From: Rhodoferax lithotrophicus
GTDB lineage: Bacteria; Pseudomonadota; Gammaproteobacteria; Burkholderiales; Burkholderiaceae_C
Length of the DNA stretch: 32,000 bases
Direction of reading: 5' to 3'
Assembly: GCF_019973615.1 (NCBI RefSeq)
Contig: NZ_AP024238.1
Coordinates: 2,717,989 to 2,749,988, forward strand
Made by a program: the position numbers and the translations under genes. Below are positions 6,323 through 20,413 of this stretch, piece after piece (the first letter of the stretch is position 1; each line of letters opens with the position of its first letter). The notes beneath the pieces were generated by a model. That model saw only the letters and a program-made list of their open reading frames with translations, was not told the origin of the DNA and made no database searches.

Positions 6323-6397
6323 TGGTGGGCGGTGGAGGCTTCGAACCTCCGACCCCAGCAGTGTGAATGCTGTGCTCTACCCCTGAGCTAACCGCCC
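6323..6397 (-). tRNA. tRNA-Val (anticodon CAC), CCA encoded
   Basis: The reverse complement folds as a cloverleaf: GGGCGGT TA GCTC AGGGGTA GAGC A CAGCA TTCACAC TGCTG GGGTC GGAGG TTCGAAG CCTCC ACCGCCC A CCA (75 nt). Confidence 0.95.
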
Positions 6398-6637
6398 CAT
6401 TCCCTTATCGGTAACAGACTGAAATTATGCCATACATTTTTATCTTTTTAAGAAAAAATAACAAATCTTCCAGCCTTGAGAGGACGGGTATTGGCTGCAC
6501 TACAACTCACATACCCTGCGACTCGTCTTCGTTTTACAGTGCCCTCAACTACAGTAGTTTTTCTAACGTCCCACAGAACAGAGATTTAACCCGCTTTGGA
6601 TTTAAAAGAATATTTATGCTTTTTAAAGAACAGTTAC

Positions 6638-6666
6638 TTAAATCAGCAAAAAAACCTGTCTATAAT
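6638..6666 (+). promoter_or_regulatory. putative sigma70 promoter of tRNA-Asn
   Basis: Perfect -10 TATAAT at 6661-6666, 11 nt before the mature tRNA 5' end. Weak -35 TTAAAT at 6638-6643 (17-nt spacer), with an A/T-rich upstream region. Confidence 0.4.
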
Positions 6667-6677
6667 ATAGGACTTGT

Positions 6678-6753
6678 TCCTCGATAGCTCAGTTGGTAGA
6701 GCGCCGGACTGTTAATCCGTAGGTCCCTGGTTCGAGCCCAGGTCGAGGAGCCA
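6678..6753 (+). tRNA. tRNA-Asn (anticodon GTT), CCA encoded
   Basis: TCCTCGA TA GCTC AGTTGGTA GAGC G CCGGA CTGTTAA TCCGT AGGTC CCTGG TTCGAGC CCAGG TCGAGGA G CCA (76 nt). Close to E. coli tRNA-Asn. Confidence 0.97.
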
Positions 6754-7468: not shown

Positions 7469-7919
7469 CCCAAAAGGTCTTCGGTCAATTCCAATGAAAA
7501 AGGGCAAAGCTCGTAACGAACTCTACCCTTCAGTGTGCTTTCTCAGGTATGGAAAGCGTTATGACGGTAAACCGCCTGTCAAGTGTGTGCGTATGTATGT
7601 TCCATGGTCATCTACGGGGCTCCTTCACCGAGAATAGGGACTCGGTCACGGGGAAATTCTGCGCCTGAATTGTTGAAGAGTCAATTACTTTACTGGAAAC
7701 TGGGCCGTCAGACCCCGCATTTCAGCAGCCGGTGAAGGCAAAACAGCTCTTCGGCGTGCCACCTATGTTGCCCAGCGCACGGACACAGATGCTGCACCTC
7801 TTGATACTGAAACCCGTGATGCACAGCATTTCTGCGCTTGTGCAAAACGTAGTCACCCAGGTCAGCCGTCTGCTGTCTTGGATTTCAAAAGTTTTTGTAT
7901 CCATCAAAGAGGTCGGCGA

Positions 7920-9818
7920 ATGAAAAAAATCGCGGGTAATTCAAAAAGGTTGCCATGCTTCATGGCCATGCTTCTGAGCATCTTGGTCACCGCATGTGGC
8001 GGTGGCGGACAGTCACCCATATTGGGGGCTGGCAGCCTCAGCCCGGTGCCTGTCGTGCCGCTCACGGTCACGGCTGTTTCACCCTTGCCCAATACCTTGG
8101 GTGTGGCGATCAACACCCGAGTCCTGAGCGCTGCATTCAGCCAATCGATGAATCCCGCCACACTCAGCACCACCAGTTTCACCTTGGCTTGCCCGACCAC
8201 CACCCCCATCGCAGGTGCCGCAGTGAGTTATGTCGCCGCCAGCAAAATTGCCACATTGACCTTGCCGGTGGGTACGATGCTCCCTGTAAACACGGTGTGT
8301 ACTACAACGATCACCACCGCAGCCAAAAACAGCACGGGCTTGGCACTGGTCAGCAACTACATCTGGAGTTGGACCACCGCCTTGGCCACCGATACCACCG
8401 CACCCCGGGTCATCAGCACCGTGCACGCCAACAATGCCATCAATGTGCCCGTCAACACCCGCATTGATGCCACCTTCAGCGAAGCCCTCAACCCGCTGAC
8501 CCTGACCAATATCAATTTCTCGATGAAGCAAACCGTAAGCGGTGCGGCCGTTACGGGCACCACCAGTTATTCAGGGGTGGATGCCTTGTTCATCCCGCTG
8601 AATGCGCTGACTCCTGGCACCCAATACACCATGACACTCAAGGGCGGCGCAGGGGGGGTGGAGGATTTGGCAGCCAACCCGATGGCGGTGGACTATGTGT
8701 GGAGTTGGACAACCGTGGCAGCGGATGTCACCGCACCCCTGGTCACCCTGGTCAGCCCGGCCAACCTGGCCACCAATGTGGCCACCAGCACCGCAGTGAA
8801 TGCCACATTCAATGAAGCCATAGACCCCTTGACCATCAGCAATGCCAGCTTCACGCTGGCCGGTGTCACCGGTGTGGCAGGCAGTGTGAGCTTCAATGCA
8901 CTCACCAAGATCGCCACTTTCACGCCCAATGCCGCATTGACGGCAGGCACCATCTACACCGCCACTGTGACCACCGGCGTGACTGATCTGGCTGGCAACA
9001 ACTTGGCACTGAACAAGGTCTGGAGCTTCACCACGGCGGCGATTCCTATCGTGATACCGGTCATTGCCCTCAATACCGCCGCACCGTATGGCACTTTTGG
9101 CGGCACGGCGGGCATGACCAACACCGGCACCCTCACCCAAGTCAACGGTGACATTGGCACGATTGCCACCGGTACCTCCATGGTGACGGGTTTCCACGAC
9201 ACGCTGGGTGACATTTACACCGAAAGCCCGGCCAATATCGGTGCGGTGAACGGCAGGATTTACACCTGCACCAACGCCACCACCGGCCCCAACTCAGCCG
9301 TCTTCAGTGTCCCCAACTGCGCCATTGCCACCCAGGCCCGCCTGGATGCCCAAACCGCCTACCTGGCATTGGTGGCCAAACCGGTGGGTGGCGCAAGTCC
9401 GGCCCCGGGTGCCAACCTGGCTGGCTTGACCCTGTTGCCAGGAACCTATGTAGCCCCTGGCGGCTCGTTCATGATTCAAGGCGGCAACCTGACGCTGGAC
9501 GCGCAAGGTGATGCCAATGCCACCTGGGTGTTCCAGATGGCCACCACCCTCACCGTGGGCGGGCCTGGTGCGGCGTTTCCGCAAAGCATCATCCTGGCTG
9601 GCGGTGCCTTGCCGAAAAACGTGTTCTGGCAAGTGGGCAGCTTTGCCACCATCAACGCCGCCGGTGGCGGCACCATGGTGGGCACGATCATTTCGCAAGC
9701 GGGCACATCATTTTCAACTGCAGGCAACGTCAATATCGTGACACTGGAAGGCCGGGCCCTTTCTCTGGGAGCCTCGGTCACGCTGGTCGACACCGTCATC
9801 AACGTGCCAGCCCCCTAA
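7920..9818 (+). CDS. surface lipoprotein with three Ig-like (Big_5/SbsA-type) repeats and a C-terminal DUF3494 ice-binding-family beta-solenoid domain
   Basis: ATG 7920 lies 8 nt after GAGG. MKKIAGNSKRLPCFMAMLLSILVTAC is a type II signal peptide with lipobox VTAC, followed by a GGGG linker. Three tandem repeats follow. The C-terminal 250 aa carry DUF3494 hallmarks: GDIGT, helix ATQARLDAQTAYLAL, GLTLLPGTYV, LTLDAQGDANATWVFQ, GGALPKNVFWQVGS, GRALSLGASVTLVDTVINVP. Compare the Colwellia/Flavobacterium ice-binding proteins. Confidence 0.85.
   Translation: MKKIAGNSKRLPCFMAMLLSILVTACGGGGQSPILGAGSLSPVPVVPLTVTAVSPLPNTLGVAINTRVLSAAFSQSMNPATLSTTSFTLACPTTTPIAGAAVSYVAASKIATLTLPVGTMLPVNTVCTTTITTAAKNSTGLALVSNYIWSWTTALATDTTAPRVISTVHANNAINVPVNTRIDATFSEALNPLTLTNINFSMKQTVSGAAVTGTTSYSGVDALFIPLNALTPGTQYTMTLKGGAGGVEDLAANPMAVDYVWSWTTVAADVTAPLVTLVSPANLATNVATSTAVNATFNEAIDPLTISNASFTLAGVTGVAGSVSFNALTKIATFTPNAALTAGTIYTATVTTGVTDLAGNNLALNKVWSFTTAAIPIVIPVIALNTAAPYGTFGGTAGMTNTGTLTQVNGDIGTIATGTSMVTGFHDTLGDIYTESPANIGAVNGRIYTCTNATTGPNSAVFSVPNCAIATQARLDAQTAYLALVAKPVGGASPAPGANLAGLTLLPGTYVAPGGSFMIQGGNLTLDAQGDANATWVFQMATTLTVGGPGAAFPQSIILAGGALPKNVFWQVGSFATINAAGGGTMVGTIISQAGTSFSTAGNVNIVTLEGRALSLGASVTLVDTVINVPAP
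8061..9035 (+). repeat. three tandem ~105-codon coding repeats (Ig-like domains) inside the 7920-9818 CDS
   Basis: Units at 8061-8378, 8391-8714 and 8724-9035. Shared protein pattern: D.TAP.V......N....V...T.I.ATFSEA..P.T.......(L/M)...........WSWTT. DNA identity is visible: TGGAGTTGGACCACC at 8364 versus TGGAGTTGGACAACC at 8700, and GATACCACCGCACCCC at 8391 versus GATGTCACCGCACCCC at 8724. Confidence 0.8.
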
Positions 9819-9838
9819 ACCAACACCCGGAGTACGAC

Positions 9839-11017
9839 ATGACACGCACACATTGCAGACTTTTCAGCTTCGCAGGCCGTTTCAGCTTGCTCACACTGGC
9901 ACTCATGGCCAGCCCTTTCGCCATGGCAGACACCCCGTTCTGGTATGGCGGGGCCAATATCGGCCAGTCCCAAGCCACGATTGATGATGCCCGCATCGCC
10001 AGTGGGCTGCTCGCCAATGGTCTCACAGCGGGGCCGATCAACGACATTCACCGTGATCTTGGTTTCAAACTGTATGGAGGCTACCAGTTCAATAAAAACT
10101 TCGCCGTAGAAGGCGGCTACTTTGACCTGGGGCAGTTTGGCTTCAACACCAGCACCATCCCGCTGGGCACCTTAAGCGGCAACATCCGCCTCAAAGGGGT
10201 GAACCTGGACGCGGTGGGCATCCTGCCCATCACCGACAAGTTCTCGGCCTTTGGCCGCCTGGGGGTAACTCACATGCAAACCAATGATACGTTTGTGGGC
10301 ACAGGTGCGGTGAATGTACTCAACCCCAATCCAAGCTCGCGTGACACCAACCTGAAAGTGGGTCTGGGGCTGCAATATGCGCTGGCCCCGGCACTGATGC
10401 TGCGTGGTGAGATCGAGCGCTACCGCATAGATGACGCGGTAGGCAACAAGGGGGATGTGGACTTGGTGTCCGTTGGCTTGGTTTACCGTTTTGGCGCGCC
10501 AACACCCACCCCTGTGACCCGCGCTTACACTGCAGAACCGGTGGTGTTGGCCCAGGCCCCTGCGCCAGCGGTGGCGGTACCAGTTGAGGCCGCCCTGCCA
10601 CCACCTGTACCGCTTCCCCCTCCCATACCCTTGCCTGTCAAAGTCTCTTTTTCTGCGGATTCGCTGTTTGACTTTGACAATGCCGCAGTCAAGCCTGCCG
10701 GTCGTCTGGAGCTGGACAAGCTGGCAACCGATTTGCGTGGCGTGGACTTTGATGTGATCAACGTCACCGGACACACTGACCGCATTGGCTCACATGCCTA
10801 TAACCAAAAGCTTTCGACACGCCGCGCTGAGGCGGTCAACACCTACCTTGTGCAATCTGGCGGCATACCCGCGCACAAGATCAGTGCCAAGGGGGTCAAT
10901 GGCTCAGATCCGGTGACCAAGCCCGGCGACTGCCTGGGCAACAAGGCGACTCCGGCCTTGATTACATGCCTGCAACCTGATCGCCGGGTTGACATTGATG
11001 TATCTGGCAAACTCTAA
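9839..11017 (+). CDS. OmpA-family outer membrane protein (N-terminal beta-barrel, Pro-rich linker, C-terminal peptidoglycan-binding OmpA_C domain)
   Basis: 392 aa. GGAG lies 6 nt before the ATG, which is 20 nt after the upstream stop. Signal peptide ...LALMASPFAMA. Alternating aromatic beta-strands end in VGLVYRF. Linker PTPTPV...PPPVPLPPPIPLP. OmpA_C motif NVTGHTDRIGSHAYNQKLSTRRAEAV. Confidence 0.9.
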   Translation: MTRTHCRLFSFAGRFSLLTLALMASPFAMADTPFWYGGANIGQSQATIDDARIASGLLANGLTAGPINDIHRDLGFKLYGGYQFNKNFAVEGGYFDLGQFGFNTSTIPLGTLSGNIRLKGVNLDAVGILPITDKFSAFGRLGVTHMQTNDTFVGTGAVNVLNPNPSSRDTNLKVGLGLQYALAPALMLRGEIERYRIDDAVGNKGDVDLVSVGLVYRFGAPTPTPVTRAYTAEPVVLAQAPAPAVAVPVEAALPPPVPLPPPIPLPVKVSFSADSLFDFDNAAVKPAGRLELDKLATDLRGVDFDVINVTGHTDRIGSHAYNQKLSTRRAEAVNTYLVQSGGIPAHKISAKGVNGSDPVTKPGDCLGNKATPALITCLQPDRRVDIDVSGKL

Positions 11018-11034
11018 TCAGCATCCATGATCTC

Positions 11035-11060
11035 CTGAACACCATTTCAATGGTGTTCAG
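11035..11060 (+). terminator. strong hairpin after the OmpA-family gene (no U-tract)
   Basis: CTGAACACCAT-TTCA-ATGGTGTTCAG: a perfect 11-bp stem 17 nt after the stop. It is followed by CACAGGGG, so it is not a canonical intrinsic terminator. Confidence 0.4.
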
Positions 11061-11311
11061 CACAGGGGCAATGAGTGTCACCATTCTCGACGCAGAAAAG
11101 CCTATCGCTTTGATGCACCGTTACAAGCCGATGCGTCCCACACAATGGGGTAGATATCGGTTGCCCTGGCAAGAAGCAAAGTTGCTGCATAACGGCAAAC
11201 AGGCAGTCCGCATATTCAAACAAAACACATATCGGCATCGGTTGACAAGTTGGCTTCATCATGGTGCGCAATTTGCTTGCATTGAGTTAACACCCTCAGA
11301 TCAAGACAGAT

Positions 11312-13807
11312 ATGAATACCGCCAAACAAATTGTTGCACCTCGCATGCAAGCATTGCAAAAGTTGGAAAAGTCCCTCAAAAGGCTGGATTTGAGCTGGAA
11401 AGTCATCGAGACCACCGCACGAGTTGTCAGCCCACCGGAATCAGCGGCATTTATCTCAACGCTTGAACACACACGGGCTGCATTTAGCCACTTGGCAGCG
11501 GAAATGGTGGACCAAATTGCACACACTTATTTATCCAACTGCAATCATGATCTAACTTCACGAGCACAAGTGGCCATTGATATCCTGGTTCGTAATCTGT
11601 TTGAGCGGACCGCAGATGTGGGCTTTATTGCAACCGATGGCCCCTTGGTTCAATTTGTCCAGGCTCCAGACGAACAACTACGCACGCAACTGCACGCACG
11701 GTTAACTGAATATCGCAATAAATACACGGTATATGACGACATTTTGGTTCTAAATGCATCAGCACAGTTGTTGTTATCACTCAAACCCAACAACCGACAA
11801 GACATAGTGACACCTGCTTGGTGGTCTGAGGTTCTGTCCAAACAAGGATATGTAGAGTGTTATGGAAGAAGCGGCTTGTTTAACACTGCTGAGAATGTGC
11901 TGATCTATTCACATCGCATCGTGGCCGACGATGGATACCCGTGTGGTGTCGTGATTCTCAAATTTGATTTGCAGTCAGAGCTAATGTCCATTTTCAAGGC
12001 ATTGCAACATGAAAGTAGTGTCATTGCTGTGCTGGACGAACATAGCCGCGTGGTGACCAGCAGTGACACCGATTGCTTTGCTCCTCTTGAGACTGTTCGA
12101 CTGCCAAAGGCCAGACAGCAGTCCATCGCACAGACCATACATCACAAAGGTGTTGACTATCTTTTTTCACACTGTGGCACGCGTAGCTACCAAGGTTATA
12201 GCGGTCCAGGCTGGACAGCACTTGCACTTGTCAGATTGGATGAGGCATTTGAATCATCACGCAATAACACACTATCAACTCAGGGAAAAATACCTGACAC
12301 ATCAATCGAGATTGAGTTGGAACATGCTGAACTTCAACAAATCGTCGCTCGTGCCAGAACCATAGGAAATGATCTCAATCGAGTTATCTGGAACGGTAAG
12401 CTCAATGAGTCAGGTAACGTTCCTGGCTCTGCCCTCAGTCCGGTGTTTTCAGAGATAGGCCGAACCAGCAAGCAAACCATTGCAGCCTTTGATGCCGCTA
12501 TTTTGGAGTTAAAAAGTCTTTTGTTACTTGGAAAGCGCGTCGAATTGACTTCTCATGCCACATTGGCGGTGGATATCATGGATCGTAATCTGTACGAGCG
12601 GGCAAATGACTGCCGGTGGTGGGTGTTATCGGAAGAGTTGACTGATTTGCTCCAAACCCTGCAAGTTTCACCTTCAGACACCACCCTACAGCGGGCGAGT
12701 GAAATATTGGCTCACCTCAACAGCCTGTACACCGTATATCGCCGGGTAGCCTTGTTTGACCGTCAAGGACGCGTTGTGGCTGTCTCCAGAGACGCTCAGA
12801 GCCTTGCCGAGAATACTGAAATTCCTGCGGCCCTCTTGCAACGCACCTTTGCACTAAAGGGAACCCAAGCCTACACCGTTTCCAGCATGGTGCCACATGC
12901 ACTTGCCGATGGTGAAGCTACCTACCTGTACTGCGCCCCCATCCGCAAAATTGGCGAAGATCAACCTCTAGGAGGTGTTGCTCTGGCATTTAATTGCACC
13001 GATGAATTAACTGCCATGCTGAATGATTCGTTGCCTACTGGAGGCACCACGCTTGGGTTCTTTTTAAACCATGATGGTCGGGTACTGGCCAGCACTGATC
13101 TGGATATTGCGGTGGGAGATTGCCCTGACTTCTCCCCTAGCCTGTCGAAAATAGCTGGGGGATATACAGAAAAACCCTGGTGCATATGGAAAGGGAAAAC
13201 CTTTCTGGTGGGTTTCGCAAAGAGCAAAGGATATCGGGAGTTCAAAACCACTGATGGTTATCGGGACGACGTGCAATCGGTGATGCTCACGGCAGTCAAC
13301 CCCAGCCCGGCGTTAGAAGATGGCTTTGTACTGCCCCAACCGCACCTTGGCTTCTCCGAATCAAGTACACGTTACGGGGTTGTTCAATGTGGCTCGCTGT
13401 TGCTTGCTCTGGCAAGTACACATGTGGTTGCAGCGGTATCAGCCAGCAATATGTCCGCGCCTGTCATACAGTCGGATTCAATCGGTATGCTGAAATTTTC
13501 CATAAACGGGCATGTCGACATATTGCCGGTTTACGATACCTGCAAGTTGACAGGACAAGCACCAATTGCCAACCCAGAACAAGCTGTAGCCATAGTCCTG
13601 CGCAACAGAGGCAGGACAGCAGCACTGATCGTAGACCGGCTAATTGATGTGATTGAATGCGCCTCCACAGAGGCCCCACCCGGGGGAACTAACCCAGAGG
13701 CCCCCTGGATAAGCGGATTCATTCACGACAGTCGGCCACACACCGAAGCGGTGTTTGTTATAGACCCCAACAAGTTACCAATATTCCAAAGCGTGCAGAC
13801 ACCATAA
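11312..13807 (+). CDS. soluble multidomain protein: two tandem sensor-like (PAS/Cache-type) modules fused to a C-terminal CheW-like domain
   Basis: 831 aa with no hydrophobic helix or signal peptide. The C-terminal ~140 aa (nt 13367-13786) follow the CheW-domain pattern (RYGVVQCGSLLLAL...IGMLKFSINGHVDILPVYD...AVAIVLRNRGRTAALIVDRLIDVIE...AVFVIDPNKL). There is an internal duplication with the shared motifs AIDILVRNLFERTADVGF / AVDIMDRNLYERANDCRWW and YTVY. Confidence 0.8.
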   Translation: MNTAKQIVAPRMQALQKLEKSLKRLDLSWKVIETTARVVSPPESAAFISTLEHTRAAFSHLAAEMVDQIAHTYLSNCNHDLTSRAQVAIDILVRNLFERTADVGFIATDGPLVQFVQAPDEQLRTQLHARLTEYRNKYTVYDDILVLNASAQLLLSLKPNNRQDIVTPAWWSEVLSKQGYVECYGRSGLFNTAENVLIYSHRIVADDGYPCGVVILKFDLQSELMSIFKALQHESSVIAVLDEHSRVVTSSDTDCFAPLETVRLPKARQQSIAQTIHHKGVDYLFSHCGTRSYQGYSGPGWTALALVRLDEAFESSRNNTLSTQGKIPDTSIEIELEHAELQQIVARARTIGNDLNRVIWNGKLNESGNVPGSALSPVFSEIGRTSKQTIAAFDAAILELKSLLLLGKRVELTSHATLAVDIMDRNLYERANDCRWWVLSEELTDLLQTLQVSPSDTTLQRASEILAHLNSLYTVYRRVALFDRQGRVVAVSRDAQSLAENTEIPAALLQRTFALKGTQAYTVSSMVPHALADGEATYLYCAPIRKIGEDQPLGGVALAFNCTDELTAMLNDSLPTGGTTLGFFLNHDGRVLASTDLDIAVGDCPDFSPSLSKIAGGYTEKPWCIWKGKTFLVGFAKSKGYREFKTTDGYRDDVQSVMLTAVNPSPALEDGFVLPQPHLGFSESSTRYGVVQCGSLLLALASTHVVAAVSASNMSAPVIQSDSIGMLKFSINGHVDILPVYDTCKLTGQAPIANPEQAVAIVLRNRGRTAALIVDRLIDVIECASTEAPPGGTNPEAPWISGFIHDSRPHTEAVFVIDPNKLPIFQSVQTP

Positions 13808-13928: not shown

Positions 13929-14273
13929 ATGCAGCCATCAGTTACAACAAAAACTCAATGGACGAGCACCAACGGCGGCCTTTGGTACAGGTGGCGCGGT
14001 TACACCGTCCGATGGCTATTATTCGGAATCATTGTCCAGCTGTTCCAGCCTATTTCGAATGTTAATGAGCCATACTGGCAACAAAAATCAATTCAATTTA
14101 TTATTGGAATAATATTCGGCTCAGTCTGTGCATTCGTATTCACAATGGCTGAGAACAAGCTCAATAGACTTCGTTCAAATTGGAAATCCTGGATTTTGGT
14201 AACGGCCACTTGGTTAATTGTGAAGATATTGTTTGTCAGCGTCTTGGCTATAACTGGCAACACCAACGATTAG
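13929..14273 (+). CDS. small hypothetical membrane protein
   Basis: 114 aa with about three hydrophobic segments (WLLFGIIVQLF, IQFIIGIIFGSVCAFVFTMA, WILVTATWLIVKILFVSVLAITG). Low GC, no SD, no family recognised. Confidence 0.45.
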   Translation: MQPSVTTKTQWTSTNGGLWYRWRGYTVRWLLFGIIVQLFQPISNVNEPYWQQKSIQFIIGIIFGSVCAFVFTMAENKLNRLRSNWKSWILVTATWLIVKILFVSVLAITGNTND

Positions 14274-15075: not shown

Positions 15076-15190
15076 AAACTGTCTCTTGGGTCGGTAGAAA
15101 AATTACGTTGAACTTGATCAGAACGAATTAATGCTCGTCGAACACAAGTAGTTGTGTCACGTTGTTCTGCTATTTGCGGAAGGGGAATTT

Positions 15191-15565
15191 ATGTCTTATT
15201 CTGTTTCCTGGATTTCACACGGTTGCAACGTCACTTACTCAGATCGCGTTACGTTTGAAGAGTTTATGGGTTCAATATTGGCCATCCATGCCCATGAAAA
15301 CTATGATGTCATCAGTTACGTCATACATGACATGACAAATGTGGCTGAACTGGACTTTTCTGAAGTTGACATGACGCGGATTGTTGCGCATGAGTTGGGT
15401 GCCAGATTTACCAATCCGCATGTGCGTCCGGCCGTAGTTTCTACAAATACAACCATGGGCTCAATGACAAGAGCCTTCAATGAAATCACAAAGCTTGAAA
15501 TCGGTTTCTTCCCCACAGTTCGCGAAGCCAATGATTGGGTCAAAGGAACCCAGTCAACGGCTTGA
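15191..15565 (+). CDS. hypothetical protein (no family assigned; possibly a small alpha/beta STAS-like fold)
   Basis: 124 aa from ATG 15191, preceded by GGAAGGGG. The track ORF starts upstream at 15152 (GTG-type start). No TM segment and no motif recognised. Confidence 0.55.
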   Translation: MSYSVSWISHGCNVTYSDRVTFEEFMGSILAIHAHENYDVISYVIHDMTNVAELDFSEVDMTRIVAHELGARFTNPHVRPAVVSTNTTMGSMTRAFNEITKLEIGFFPTVREANDWVKGTQSTA

Positions 15566-19948: not shown

Positions 19949-20164
19949 ATGGCAACTGCAACCAAAGCTCCAGCAAAAAAAGCCGCCCCCGCCACTAAAG
20001 CAGCTCCTGCTAAAAAAGCGGCTCCCGCCAAAGCTGCAGCGCCTGCCAAAAAAGTAGCAACCCAAGCCGCAGCCCCAGTCAAAAAGACGGCACCCGCAAA
20101 AACGGCCGCTCCCGCCAAAGCAACAGCAAAAGCAGTCGCAGCTGCCCCAGCACCTGCTGCCAAG
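19949..20164 (+). repeat. coding low-complexity repeat (AKKAAPA-like units)
   Basis: Reiterated GCn-AAA-AAA-GCn-GCn-CCn-GCn codon units. They generate the mirror ORF 19921..20262(-). Confidence 0.7.
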
Positions 20165-20413
20165 CGTGCAGTCAACTCAGCCTTCATGAAAGCCCTGACT
20201 CCCAGCGCTGCATTGGCCGCTGTGGTGGGCGCAAAAGCCCTGCCCCGCACCGAAGTGGTCAAACAGCTGTGGGTCTATATCAAAGCCAACAAACTCCAAG
20301 ATACAGAAAACAAACGCATGATCAATGCCGATACCAAGCTCAAAGCCGTGTTTGGCAAAGCCCAGGTCACCATGTTTGAAATGGCGGGACTGATTGGCAA
20401 GCACCTGAAATAA
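19949..20413 (+). CDS. SWIB/MDM2-domain protein with N-terminal histone H1-like Ala/Lys/Pro-rich tail
   Basis: 154 aa. Residues 1-72 are AKKAAPA-type low complexity. The C-terminal ~80 aa (LTPSAALAAVVGAKALPRTEVVKQLWVYIKANKLQD...MINADTKLKAVFG...VTMFEMAGLIGKHL) match the SWIB domain pattern. Confidence 0.88.
   Translation: MATATKAPAKKAAPATKAAPAKKAAPAKAAAPAKKVATQAAAPVKKTAPAKTAAPAKATAKAVAAAPAPAAKRAVNSAFMKALTPSAALAAVVGAKALPRTEVVKQLWVYIKANKLQDTENKRMINADTKLKAVFGKAQVTMFEMAGLIGKHLK

Follow-up and report, generated by a model that had tools for sequence, protein, structure and literature searches.

What does a coupling-protein domain do at the end of a large soluble protein that carries two sensor modules in front of it? 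The question is raised by a gene of Rhodoferax lithotrophicus that lies in a 32,000-nucleotide stretch of its genome (assembly GCF_019973615.1, contig NZ_AP024238.1, positions 2,717,989 to 2,749,988 of the forward strand), which we analysed as a whole and refer to as the window. The gene encodes an 831-amino acid (aa) protein in which two tandem dCache_1 modules, A and B, are followed by a divergent CheW-like domain. In window coordinates, the gene and the parts of its product are the following.

11312..13807, + strand: complete gene of the soluble 831-aa protein, with its two dCache_1 modules, its CheW-like domain and the stop codon (list of open reading frames (ORFs), Pfam)
11312..11563, + strand: N-terminal helical hairpin (aa 1-84) before module A (AlphaFold2 (AF2) helices 3-44 and the start of 48-107, predicted local distance difference test score (pLDDT) 79-90)
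11564..12247, + strand: sensor module A (aa 85-312), a dCache_1 unit made up of a long alpha1 helix and two PAS-like subdomains, distal and proximal (Pfam, AF2, Foldseek)
11573..11626, + strand: invariant helix motif A, AIDILVRNLFERTADVGF (aa 88-105; alignment of 38 homologues)
12248..12325, + strand: poorly conserved linker (aa 313-338), part of it disordered (pLDDT <50 at aa 316-330; top-residue frequency 0.29)
12326..12562, + strand: second helical hairpin (aa 339-417), before module B (AF2 helices 339-365 and 376-437; invariant W360-N361-G362)
12563..13303, + strand: sensor module B (aa 418-664), a dCache_1 unit and paralogue of A (Pfam 34 bits, BLASTP, AF2 strands 476-664)
12566..12622, + strand: invariant helix motif B, AVDIMDRNLYERANDCRWW (aa 419-437; D424-W437 invariant in 38 homologues)
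13304..13366, + strand: hypervariable tether (aa 665-685) from the sensor to the CheW-like domain (top-residue frequency 0.25, entropy 3.18, indels)
13367..13777, + strand: divergent CheW-like domain (aa 686-822; Pfam, family profile against PDB, Foldseek)

An earlier note on this DNA had read the locus as an 831-aa ORF with two paralogous modules resembling PAS/Cache (PDC-fold) sensors, a CheW-like pattern in the last ~140 aa and no signalling domain of a methyl-accepting chemotaxis protein (MCP), and had allowed that the N-terminal region might turn out to be a non-sensory enzyme. This reading of the architecture was borne out. The ORF is in the ORF list and starts with ATG, all peptides quoted in the note are found in its translation, the borders it gave for the modules and the CheW-like domain differ by a few codons from those above, and the N-terminal region is not a known enzyme. 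Over the whole protein Pfam scores dCache_1 at 74.6 bits (cutoff 45, two stretches) and CheW at 36 bits (cutoff 23.5), and at E values up to 1 it finds no other domain in the 831 aa. The MCPsignal hairpin (PF00015), the receiver domain (REC; Response_reg) and the Hpt, dimerisation and HATPase domains of CheA are thus all without a Pfam match in the protein, and no NCBIfam model matches it either. When the parts are scanned separately, the two dCache_1 halves score 44 bits (aa 98-302) and 34 bits (aa ~441-593), each alone just under the cutoff of 45 bits that the whole protein exceeds, and CheW scores 39.8 bits (aa ~693-825). Module A aligns with module B by BLASTP at E=2e-7 (24% identity over 193 aa), and the duplication is therefore genuine.

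The same start methionine is found in full-length homologues. Conservation was read, here and below, from an alignment of 38 homologues in which overall identity goes down to ~30%. Seven intact copies with at least 98% identity are present in other Rhodoferax assemblies. In some assemblies near-identical copies are annotated from Met12 (820 aa; compare window 11312-11344); Met12 is invariant in the family, yet the preceding 'VAP.M' stretch is conserved as well, and translation may start at the first Met or at Met12.

An AF2 model built from the alignment of the 38 full-length homologues (mean pLDDT 85.4, predicted template modelling score (pTM) 0.79) builds each unit from two helices, of ~27 and ~60 residues, and two five-stranded alpha/beta subdomains, so that each module is modelled as a double PDC, the point for which the earlier note had suggested an AlphaFold check. 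Disorder is confined to aa 316-330 and 616-619. Foldseek searches of PDB matched the sensor region to DctB, CtaA, PctA/B, Tlp3, McpH and PscC (E 1e-8 to 1e-6, target template modelling score (TM) 0.6-0.68) and the C-terminus to CheW and CheA-P5 chains (TM 0.71-0.75); no solved PDB structure is related to the sensor region in sequence. Judged from the high pTM alone, modules A and B may pack as one rigid body, a single-chain mimic of a dimeric dCache receptor ectodomain.

Comparison of hydropathy across homologues revealed no signal peptide, membrane helix or conserved hydrophobic segment in the 831-aa protein. The absence of a hydrophobic helix, which the earlier note had also reported, holds in substance, though one 19-mer (aa 693-711) reaches a Kyte-Doolittle value of 1.72. 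This strongest hydrophobic stretch lies in predicted beta-strands of the CheW-like domain, and across homologues the hydrophobic maximum shifts position and usually has charged residues within it. CheW-like domains are cytoplasmic, and because it is fused to such a domain and has neither a signal peptide nor a conserved hydrophobic segment, we take the whole protein to be cytoplasmic. Cytoplasmic dCache modules are unusual against the typical extracytoplasmic place of Cache families between two transmembrane helices; these families are principally extracellular, with Diacid_rec and YkuI_C as exceptions (Upadhyay et al. 2016).

The invariant residues of the family are densest in the opening helices of the two modules. 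In the opening helix of module A they are D90, R94, L96 and E98-F105, in that of module B they are D424-W437, and the two helices have the motif D-x3-R-N-L-[FY]-E-R-x2-D in common. Each distal subdomain has further invariants in its first strand (KYTVY and LYTVY) and each proximal subdomain at its end (YQGY.G..W and GYREFK, the latter forming the C-terminal end of module B), and M12, W29, T54 and F58 are invariant in the N-terminal hairpin. Top-residue frequencies reach 0.80 in the alpha1 helix of module A, the highest of all regions, and 0.75 in that of module B, with 0.54-0.58 in the distal subdomains. The ligand-binding domains of receptors usually diversify in sequence, and a sensor that stays invariant at ~30% overall identity argues for one common ligand or partner. 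The hypervariable tether, in turn, argues against rigid mechanical coupling of the sensor to the CheW-like domain. The invariant polar alpha1 motif was not found attached to any described family (no NCBIfam match and no PDB sequence relative).

For the C-terminal domain, a profile of the family searched against PDB gave E values of 4.7e-14 for 2qdl, 1.5e-9 for E. coli CheW (2ho9/6s1k) and 1.6e-8 for T. maritima CheW (1k0s), and it scores 49 bits to CheW versus 13 bits to CheA-P5. Aligned to E. coli CheW, whose numbering we use for CheW residues, the 38 homologues have an invariant equivalent of G57 and conserved equivalents of V36 and V108. In a single-sequence PDB search the C-terminus also matched TAL-effector repeats (E=1e-15); we rejected this match as a spurious sum of weak matches to 'PEQAVAIV...', the family profile giving CheW.

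How far does this architecture extend beyond the window? A word-indexed search returned 4352 matches, and nearly all of the top 120, leaving out fragments on short contigs, are proteins of 810-930 aa with precomputed dCache_1 and/or CheW matches. Scanning one genome per species (185,579 genomes) with two patterns, one of them LYERANDC, gave 600 pattern matches, at least 592 of which are relatives. Among the matches listed these belong mainly to Burkholderiales and Rhodocyclales, with others in Thiobacillus, Sideroxydans, Nevskia, Bosea and one Geobacter metagenome-assembled genome. The architecture is the same in the top 120 homologues and in the best 80 of the at least 592 genome loci, and a divergent CheW-like C-terminus is still encoded at loci where the tblastn match ends near aa 660. 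Searching 1.84 billion representatives with a profile yielded 563 clusters (50% identity) at E<=1e-30. Among the 150 closest representatives the sensor is either joined to a CheW-like domain or stands alone, and in none of them does the tandem-dCache sensor carry another output domain. As judged from these sequence searches, the architecture is widespread, mostly betaproteobacterial and fixed across the family.

In RefSeq, proteins of this architecture are named 'chemotaxis protein CheW'; WP_319566527.1, 'chemotaxis protein CheW [uncultured Rhodoferax sp.]', shares a 90% cluster with the window protein. The earlier note had raised the possibility that the architecture already belongs to a characterised family. 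We found no such family, and full-text searches of the literature brought up no paper on a Cache-CheW fusion. Some organisms have more than one form of the protein: Herbaspirillum rhizosphaerae UMS-37 encodes two paralogues that are 44% identical (L026:10001-12352 and L046:10001-12325), and Acidovorax species hold members of two subclades, with 47% and 32% identity to the window protein.

We suggest, tentatively and as the best reading available, though one slightly less likely than not, that the protein senses one conserved intracellular ligand in the cytoplasm and is held at chemoreceptor arrays via its CheW-like domain. The sensor would bind a single ligand, the same family-wide, such as an intracellular metabolite or second messenger; we propose one ligand because in both modules the invariants are concentrated in the alpha1 helix and the distal subdomain and persist to ~30% identity. 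Cyclic di-GMP (c-di-GMP) is a candidate, its support being limited to the gene neighbourhood considered below. The CheW-like domain would attach the sensor to the arrays, either in rings made of CheW only or where CheW sits in the core units. Given a flexible and variable tether, read-out by occlusion or by steric or oligomeric effects on ring packing and CheA control would be likelier than a piston-like push. As there are no methylation sites, the input would act as a non-adapting bias on kinase output that reports internal state rather than an external gradient. Docking at arrays is suggested by a C-terminus nearer to CheW than to CheA-P5, by the invariance of the G57 equivalent and by weak neighbourhood links to chemoreceptors, the next gene upstream encoding an MCP at 3 of 76 loci (Fisher p=0.02).

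Several observations weigh against this proposal. In canonical CheW, Gly57 and Gly63 are absolutely conserved and Arg62 forms a salt bridge with Glu38 (Ortega et al. 2013); R62 sits at the interfaces with both receptor and CheA, and the R62-E38 bridge couples the two. In the present family the R62 equivalent is Q, T, H, S, A or G, and never Arg, in 38/38 homologues. The 'LRG' turn between beta4 and beta5 is swapped for a loop 2-4 residues longer, in which G63 is not reliably alignable, and the E38 equivalent, which is Glu in 31/38 homologues, is Ala in the window protein. The C-terminus, though a CheW-lineage domain, thus lacks a defining feature of the canonical coupling protein. It is, moreover, the least conserved of the folded regions (top-residue frequency 0.45). 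None of the 26 larger ORFs scanned in the 32-kb window is another che or mcp gene, as the earlier note had stated, and after clustering of ~700 flanking ORFs from 78 loci we found no conserved operon partner and no che gene among the recurrent neighbours. Lastly, complete relatives exist that consist of the sensor only, from which it follows that the sensor unit can work without CheW.

These sensor-only proteins account for ~21 of the 150 best representatives. With lengths of 648-685 aa, they stop at profile position ~664, directly after the GYRE[FY]K...F.P strand. Complete genes of this kind are found within large contigs of Thiorhodospira sibirica and Acidihalobacter (both Gammaproteobacteria) and of metagenomic lineages.

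L088:8001-10010, L091:8001-10004, L092:5441-7498, L094:8001-10052 and L096:8001-9998: complete sensor-only genes, ~665-685 aa

In the sensor-only relatives, which are soluble, the two dCache units recur together with the invariant helix motifs and with GYQGY and GYRE[FY]K. Compared with the window protein, those of Thiorhodospira sibirica (WP_246585429.1) and Acidihalobacter sp. ('hypothetical protein') end after module B, without a CheW-like domain, and they are likewise uncharacterised. No CheW gene lies beside the complete sensor-only genes, all of which are stand-alone. At L088 a HAMP-MCPsignal gene is immediately upstream; at a further sensor-only locus, L087, there is an abutting 135-aa ORF that has no Pfam match on record and does not look CheW-like by eye, no comparison with the CheW-like profile having been made. 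Since sensor-only genes are complete in some lineages, the tandem-dCache unit is autonomous there and, on the distribution of the two forms in these searches, the CheW-like domain has been added, mainly in Betaproteobacteria.

That the sensor-only relatives of ~665 aa in Thiorhodospira, Acidihalobacter and others keep the invariant motifs is also what would be expected if the protein were an autonomous cytoplasmic sensor or binding protein with its main partners outside chemotaxis arrays. In the betaproteobacterial fusion, the CheW-like domain would then have been repurposed to dock on a chemosensory-like pathway not concerned with motility, such as one of Wsp type, or on c-di-GMP turnover enzymes, and the role of the protein would be in c-di-GMP or lifestyle control instead of steering. 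We regard this as unlikely, although a serious contender. The loss of R62 and the position of the CheW-like domain as the most variable one are consistent with it, and so is the neighbourhood, GGDEF/EAL genes lying immediately upstream in 6/76 loci versus 1.7% at other positions (Fisher p=0.004, uncorrected and post hoc). These upstream GGDEF or GGDEF-EAL genes are on the same strand, come from five genera (L014, L016, L038, L077 and L084) and have differing PAS/GAF N-termini; since their sensor architectures differ, they are not one inherited, syntenic block. In Rhodoferax lacus (L001:12481-14976), HDOD and GGDEF-EAL genes are directly downstream. Both invariant helices also contain an R-x-x-D stretch, a resemblance only to c-di-GMP-binding motifs. 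However, the c-di-GMP neighbourhood signal is modest and absent from the window, most loci have no c-di-GMP gene nearby, and MCP genes are slightly enriched next door as well. The C-terminal domain is clearly of CheW lineage, and to our knowledge no CheW-like domain acts outside complexes of the CheA/MCP type.

The absence of Arg at the R62 position, with the fold and the G57 equivalent kept, would also suit a ligand-regulated decoy or anti-coupler. Such a protein would bind CheA-P5 or receptor tips through its CheW-like domain without supporting kinase activation, the R62/E38 coupling being missing, and would compete with CheW so as to loosen or shut arrays in one sensor state, a task for which a bulky 680-aa N-terminal cargo on a flexible tether seems apt. 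A variable CheW-like surface, however, is hardly what one would expect of a tight competitor for a conserved partner, and the sensor-only relatives cannot act in this way. We consider a decoy role quite improbable. Although Cache domains are overwhelmingly extracytoplasmic and sensor-only genes exist elsewhere, the idea that the gene is an assembly or frameshift fusion of a Cache gene with cheW, or that an exported periplasmic protein has been misread as soluble, is effectively refuted by a single ORF with co-linear full-length alignment in hundreds of independent genomes and metagenomes, by the lack of a signal peptide or membrane helix and by the cytoplasmic nature of CheW-like domains.

The proposal of a sensor tethered to arrays can be widened to take in the sensor-only proteins. 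Together with the fused ones they may form a new class of signalling proteins, namely single-chain, pseudo-dimeric cytoplasmic dCache sensors for one universal intracellular ligand, possibly c-di-GMP, which in Betaproteobacteria would be wired into arrays via an R62-less CheW-like domain as a receptor-independent, non-adapting input to CheA. We consider this wider scheme conceivable, if on the doubtful side.

How does the window protein compare with known systems? With CheW (E. coli 2HO9/6S1K, T. maritima 1K0S, T. tengcongensis 2QDL) its C-terminal 137 aa share fold and sequence homology, whereas its length of 831 aa, with 685 aa of sensor in front, contrasts with the ~160 aa (150-170) of CheW. 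It also differs in the residues at positions R62 and E38 and in the longer beta4-beta5 loop, as described above, and in that its gene is not part of a che operon. Like CheV, it fuses a coupling-protein domain to a signal-input module, so that the coupler itself can be regulated; in CheV, however, the input arrives when a C-terminal REC domain is phosphorylated, whereas here it comes from an N-terminal dCache pair and there is no REC. The modules resemble the dCache_1 domains of receptors (DctB 3BY9/3E4O, PctA 5LTX, CtaA 6PY3, Tlp3 4XMR, McpH 8BMV) in their long N-terminal helix and their distal and proximal PAS-like subdomains. Those receptor domains sit in the periplasm between two membrane helices, form dimers from separate chains and differ widely in sequence according to the ligand; the modules of the window protein, by contrast, are cytoplasmic and tandem in one chain, with an extra helix before each. 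Cytoplasmic sensory input and unusual CheW architectures are likewise features of soluble chemoreceptors and of the CheW.II/CheW.III variants of cytoplasmic arrays, but soluble chemoreceptors carry the MCP signalling hairpin that the window protein is without. The protein thus falls outside canonical CheW (by size, R62 and che linkage), MCP, CheV and CheA, and inside the dCache_1 and CheW-like domain families.

Databases already show the architecture, but it is unstudied as well as widespread, and it runs against two generalisations in common use. If our proposal is right, the view of Cache domains as extracytoplasmic sensors that signal only through a membrane helix would need a footnote, and so would the view that arrays receive their sensory input through MCPs, CheW being no more than a passive adaptor. 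A sensor inside the coupling protein would be a third route of array regulation, beside receptors and CheV phosphorylation, and could explain an internal metabolic or second-messenger bias on motility in Betaproteobacteria. Preprints by Vass, Bourret and Foster that survey CheW architectures name PAS-CheW fusions as possible inputs, and the word Cache occurs in neither text. The question is directly testable, as the invariant residues to mutate are sharply defined and the family is present in Herbaspirillum, Acidovorax, Azospira and Curvibacter. In these experiments it would help that all four are culturable genera and, as far as known, genetically tractable.

Turning to the surroundings of the gene in the window, one further feature adjoins its start.

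11018..11311, + strand: upstream intergenic region of 294 bp, presumed to carry the gene's own promoter (gap between the end of the OmpA-like ORF at 11017 and the ATG)

A consensus scan of 11018..11311 found no sigma-70-like site, and a promoter and terminator scan gave matches no more numerous than in shuffled sequence. The gene stands alone. The window shares no neighbour with any other of the 78 loci, closest relatives included, and in Rhodoferax lacus, Acidovorax facilis and Herbaspirillum rubrisubalbicans entirely other genes flank the homologue. The description of the protein as an orphan in the earlier note is therefore apt for its genomic context, where no neighbour is conserved, but not for its family, which is large (at least 592 species genomes). 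The downstream neighbours are a small hydrophobic ORF, a redoxin and an ORF without assignment. Two of these downstream ORFs, at 13929-14273 (114 aa, hydrophobic) and 15152-15565 (137 aa), have no Pfam match and were not found beside homologues in other genomes.

The earlier note had also held the gene to be compositionally distinct from both neighbours, a statement that applies on one side only. The GC content at third codon positions (GC3) is 0.49 for the gene versus 0.72 and 0.66 for the two upstream genes, but the three downstream ORFs, at 0.50, 0.50 and 0.46, are close to it; RpiA and PyrD have 0.52 and 0.54. In the upstream pair with high GC3 (7878-11017), a predicted lipoprotein that combines three Big_5 domains with an ice-binding-like domain comes first and an OmpA-like porin second; the pair may be a cold-adaptation cassette of foreign origin. 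Further upstream, at 6323-6753, there is a divergent tRNA pair, tRNA-Val cac (- strand) and tRNA-Asn gtt (+ strand). It borders a compositionally patchy stretch that runs to ~15.8 kb (GC 0.44-0.61) and includes the gene of interest; this stretch could be a genomic island. Elsewhere in the window, at 19949-20413, a 154-aa ORF has a SWIB/MDM2 domain (E=3.6e-28), which is associated with chromatin and known chiefly from eukaryotes.

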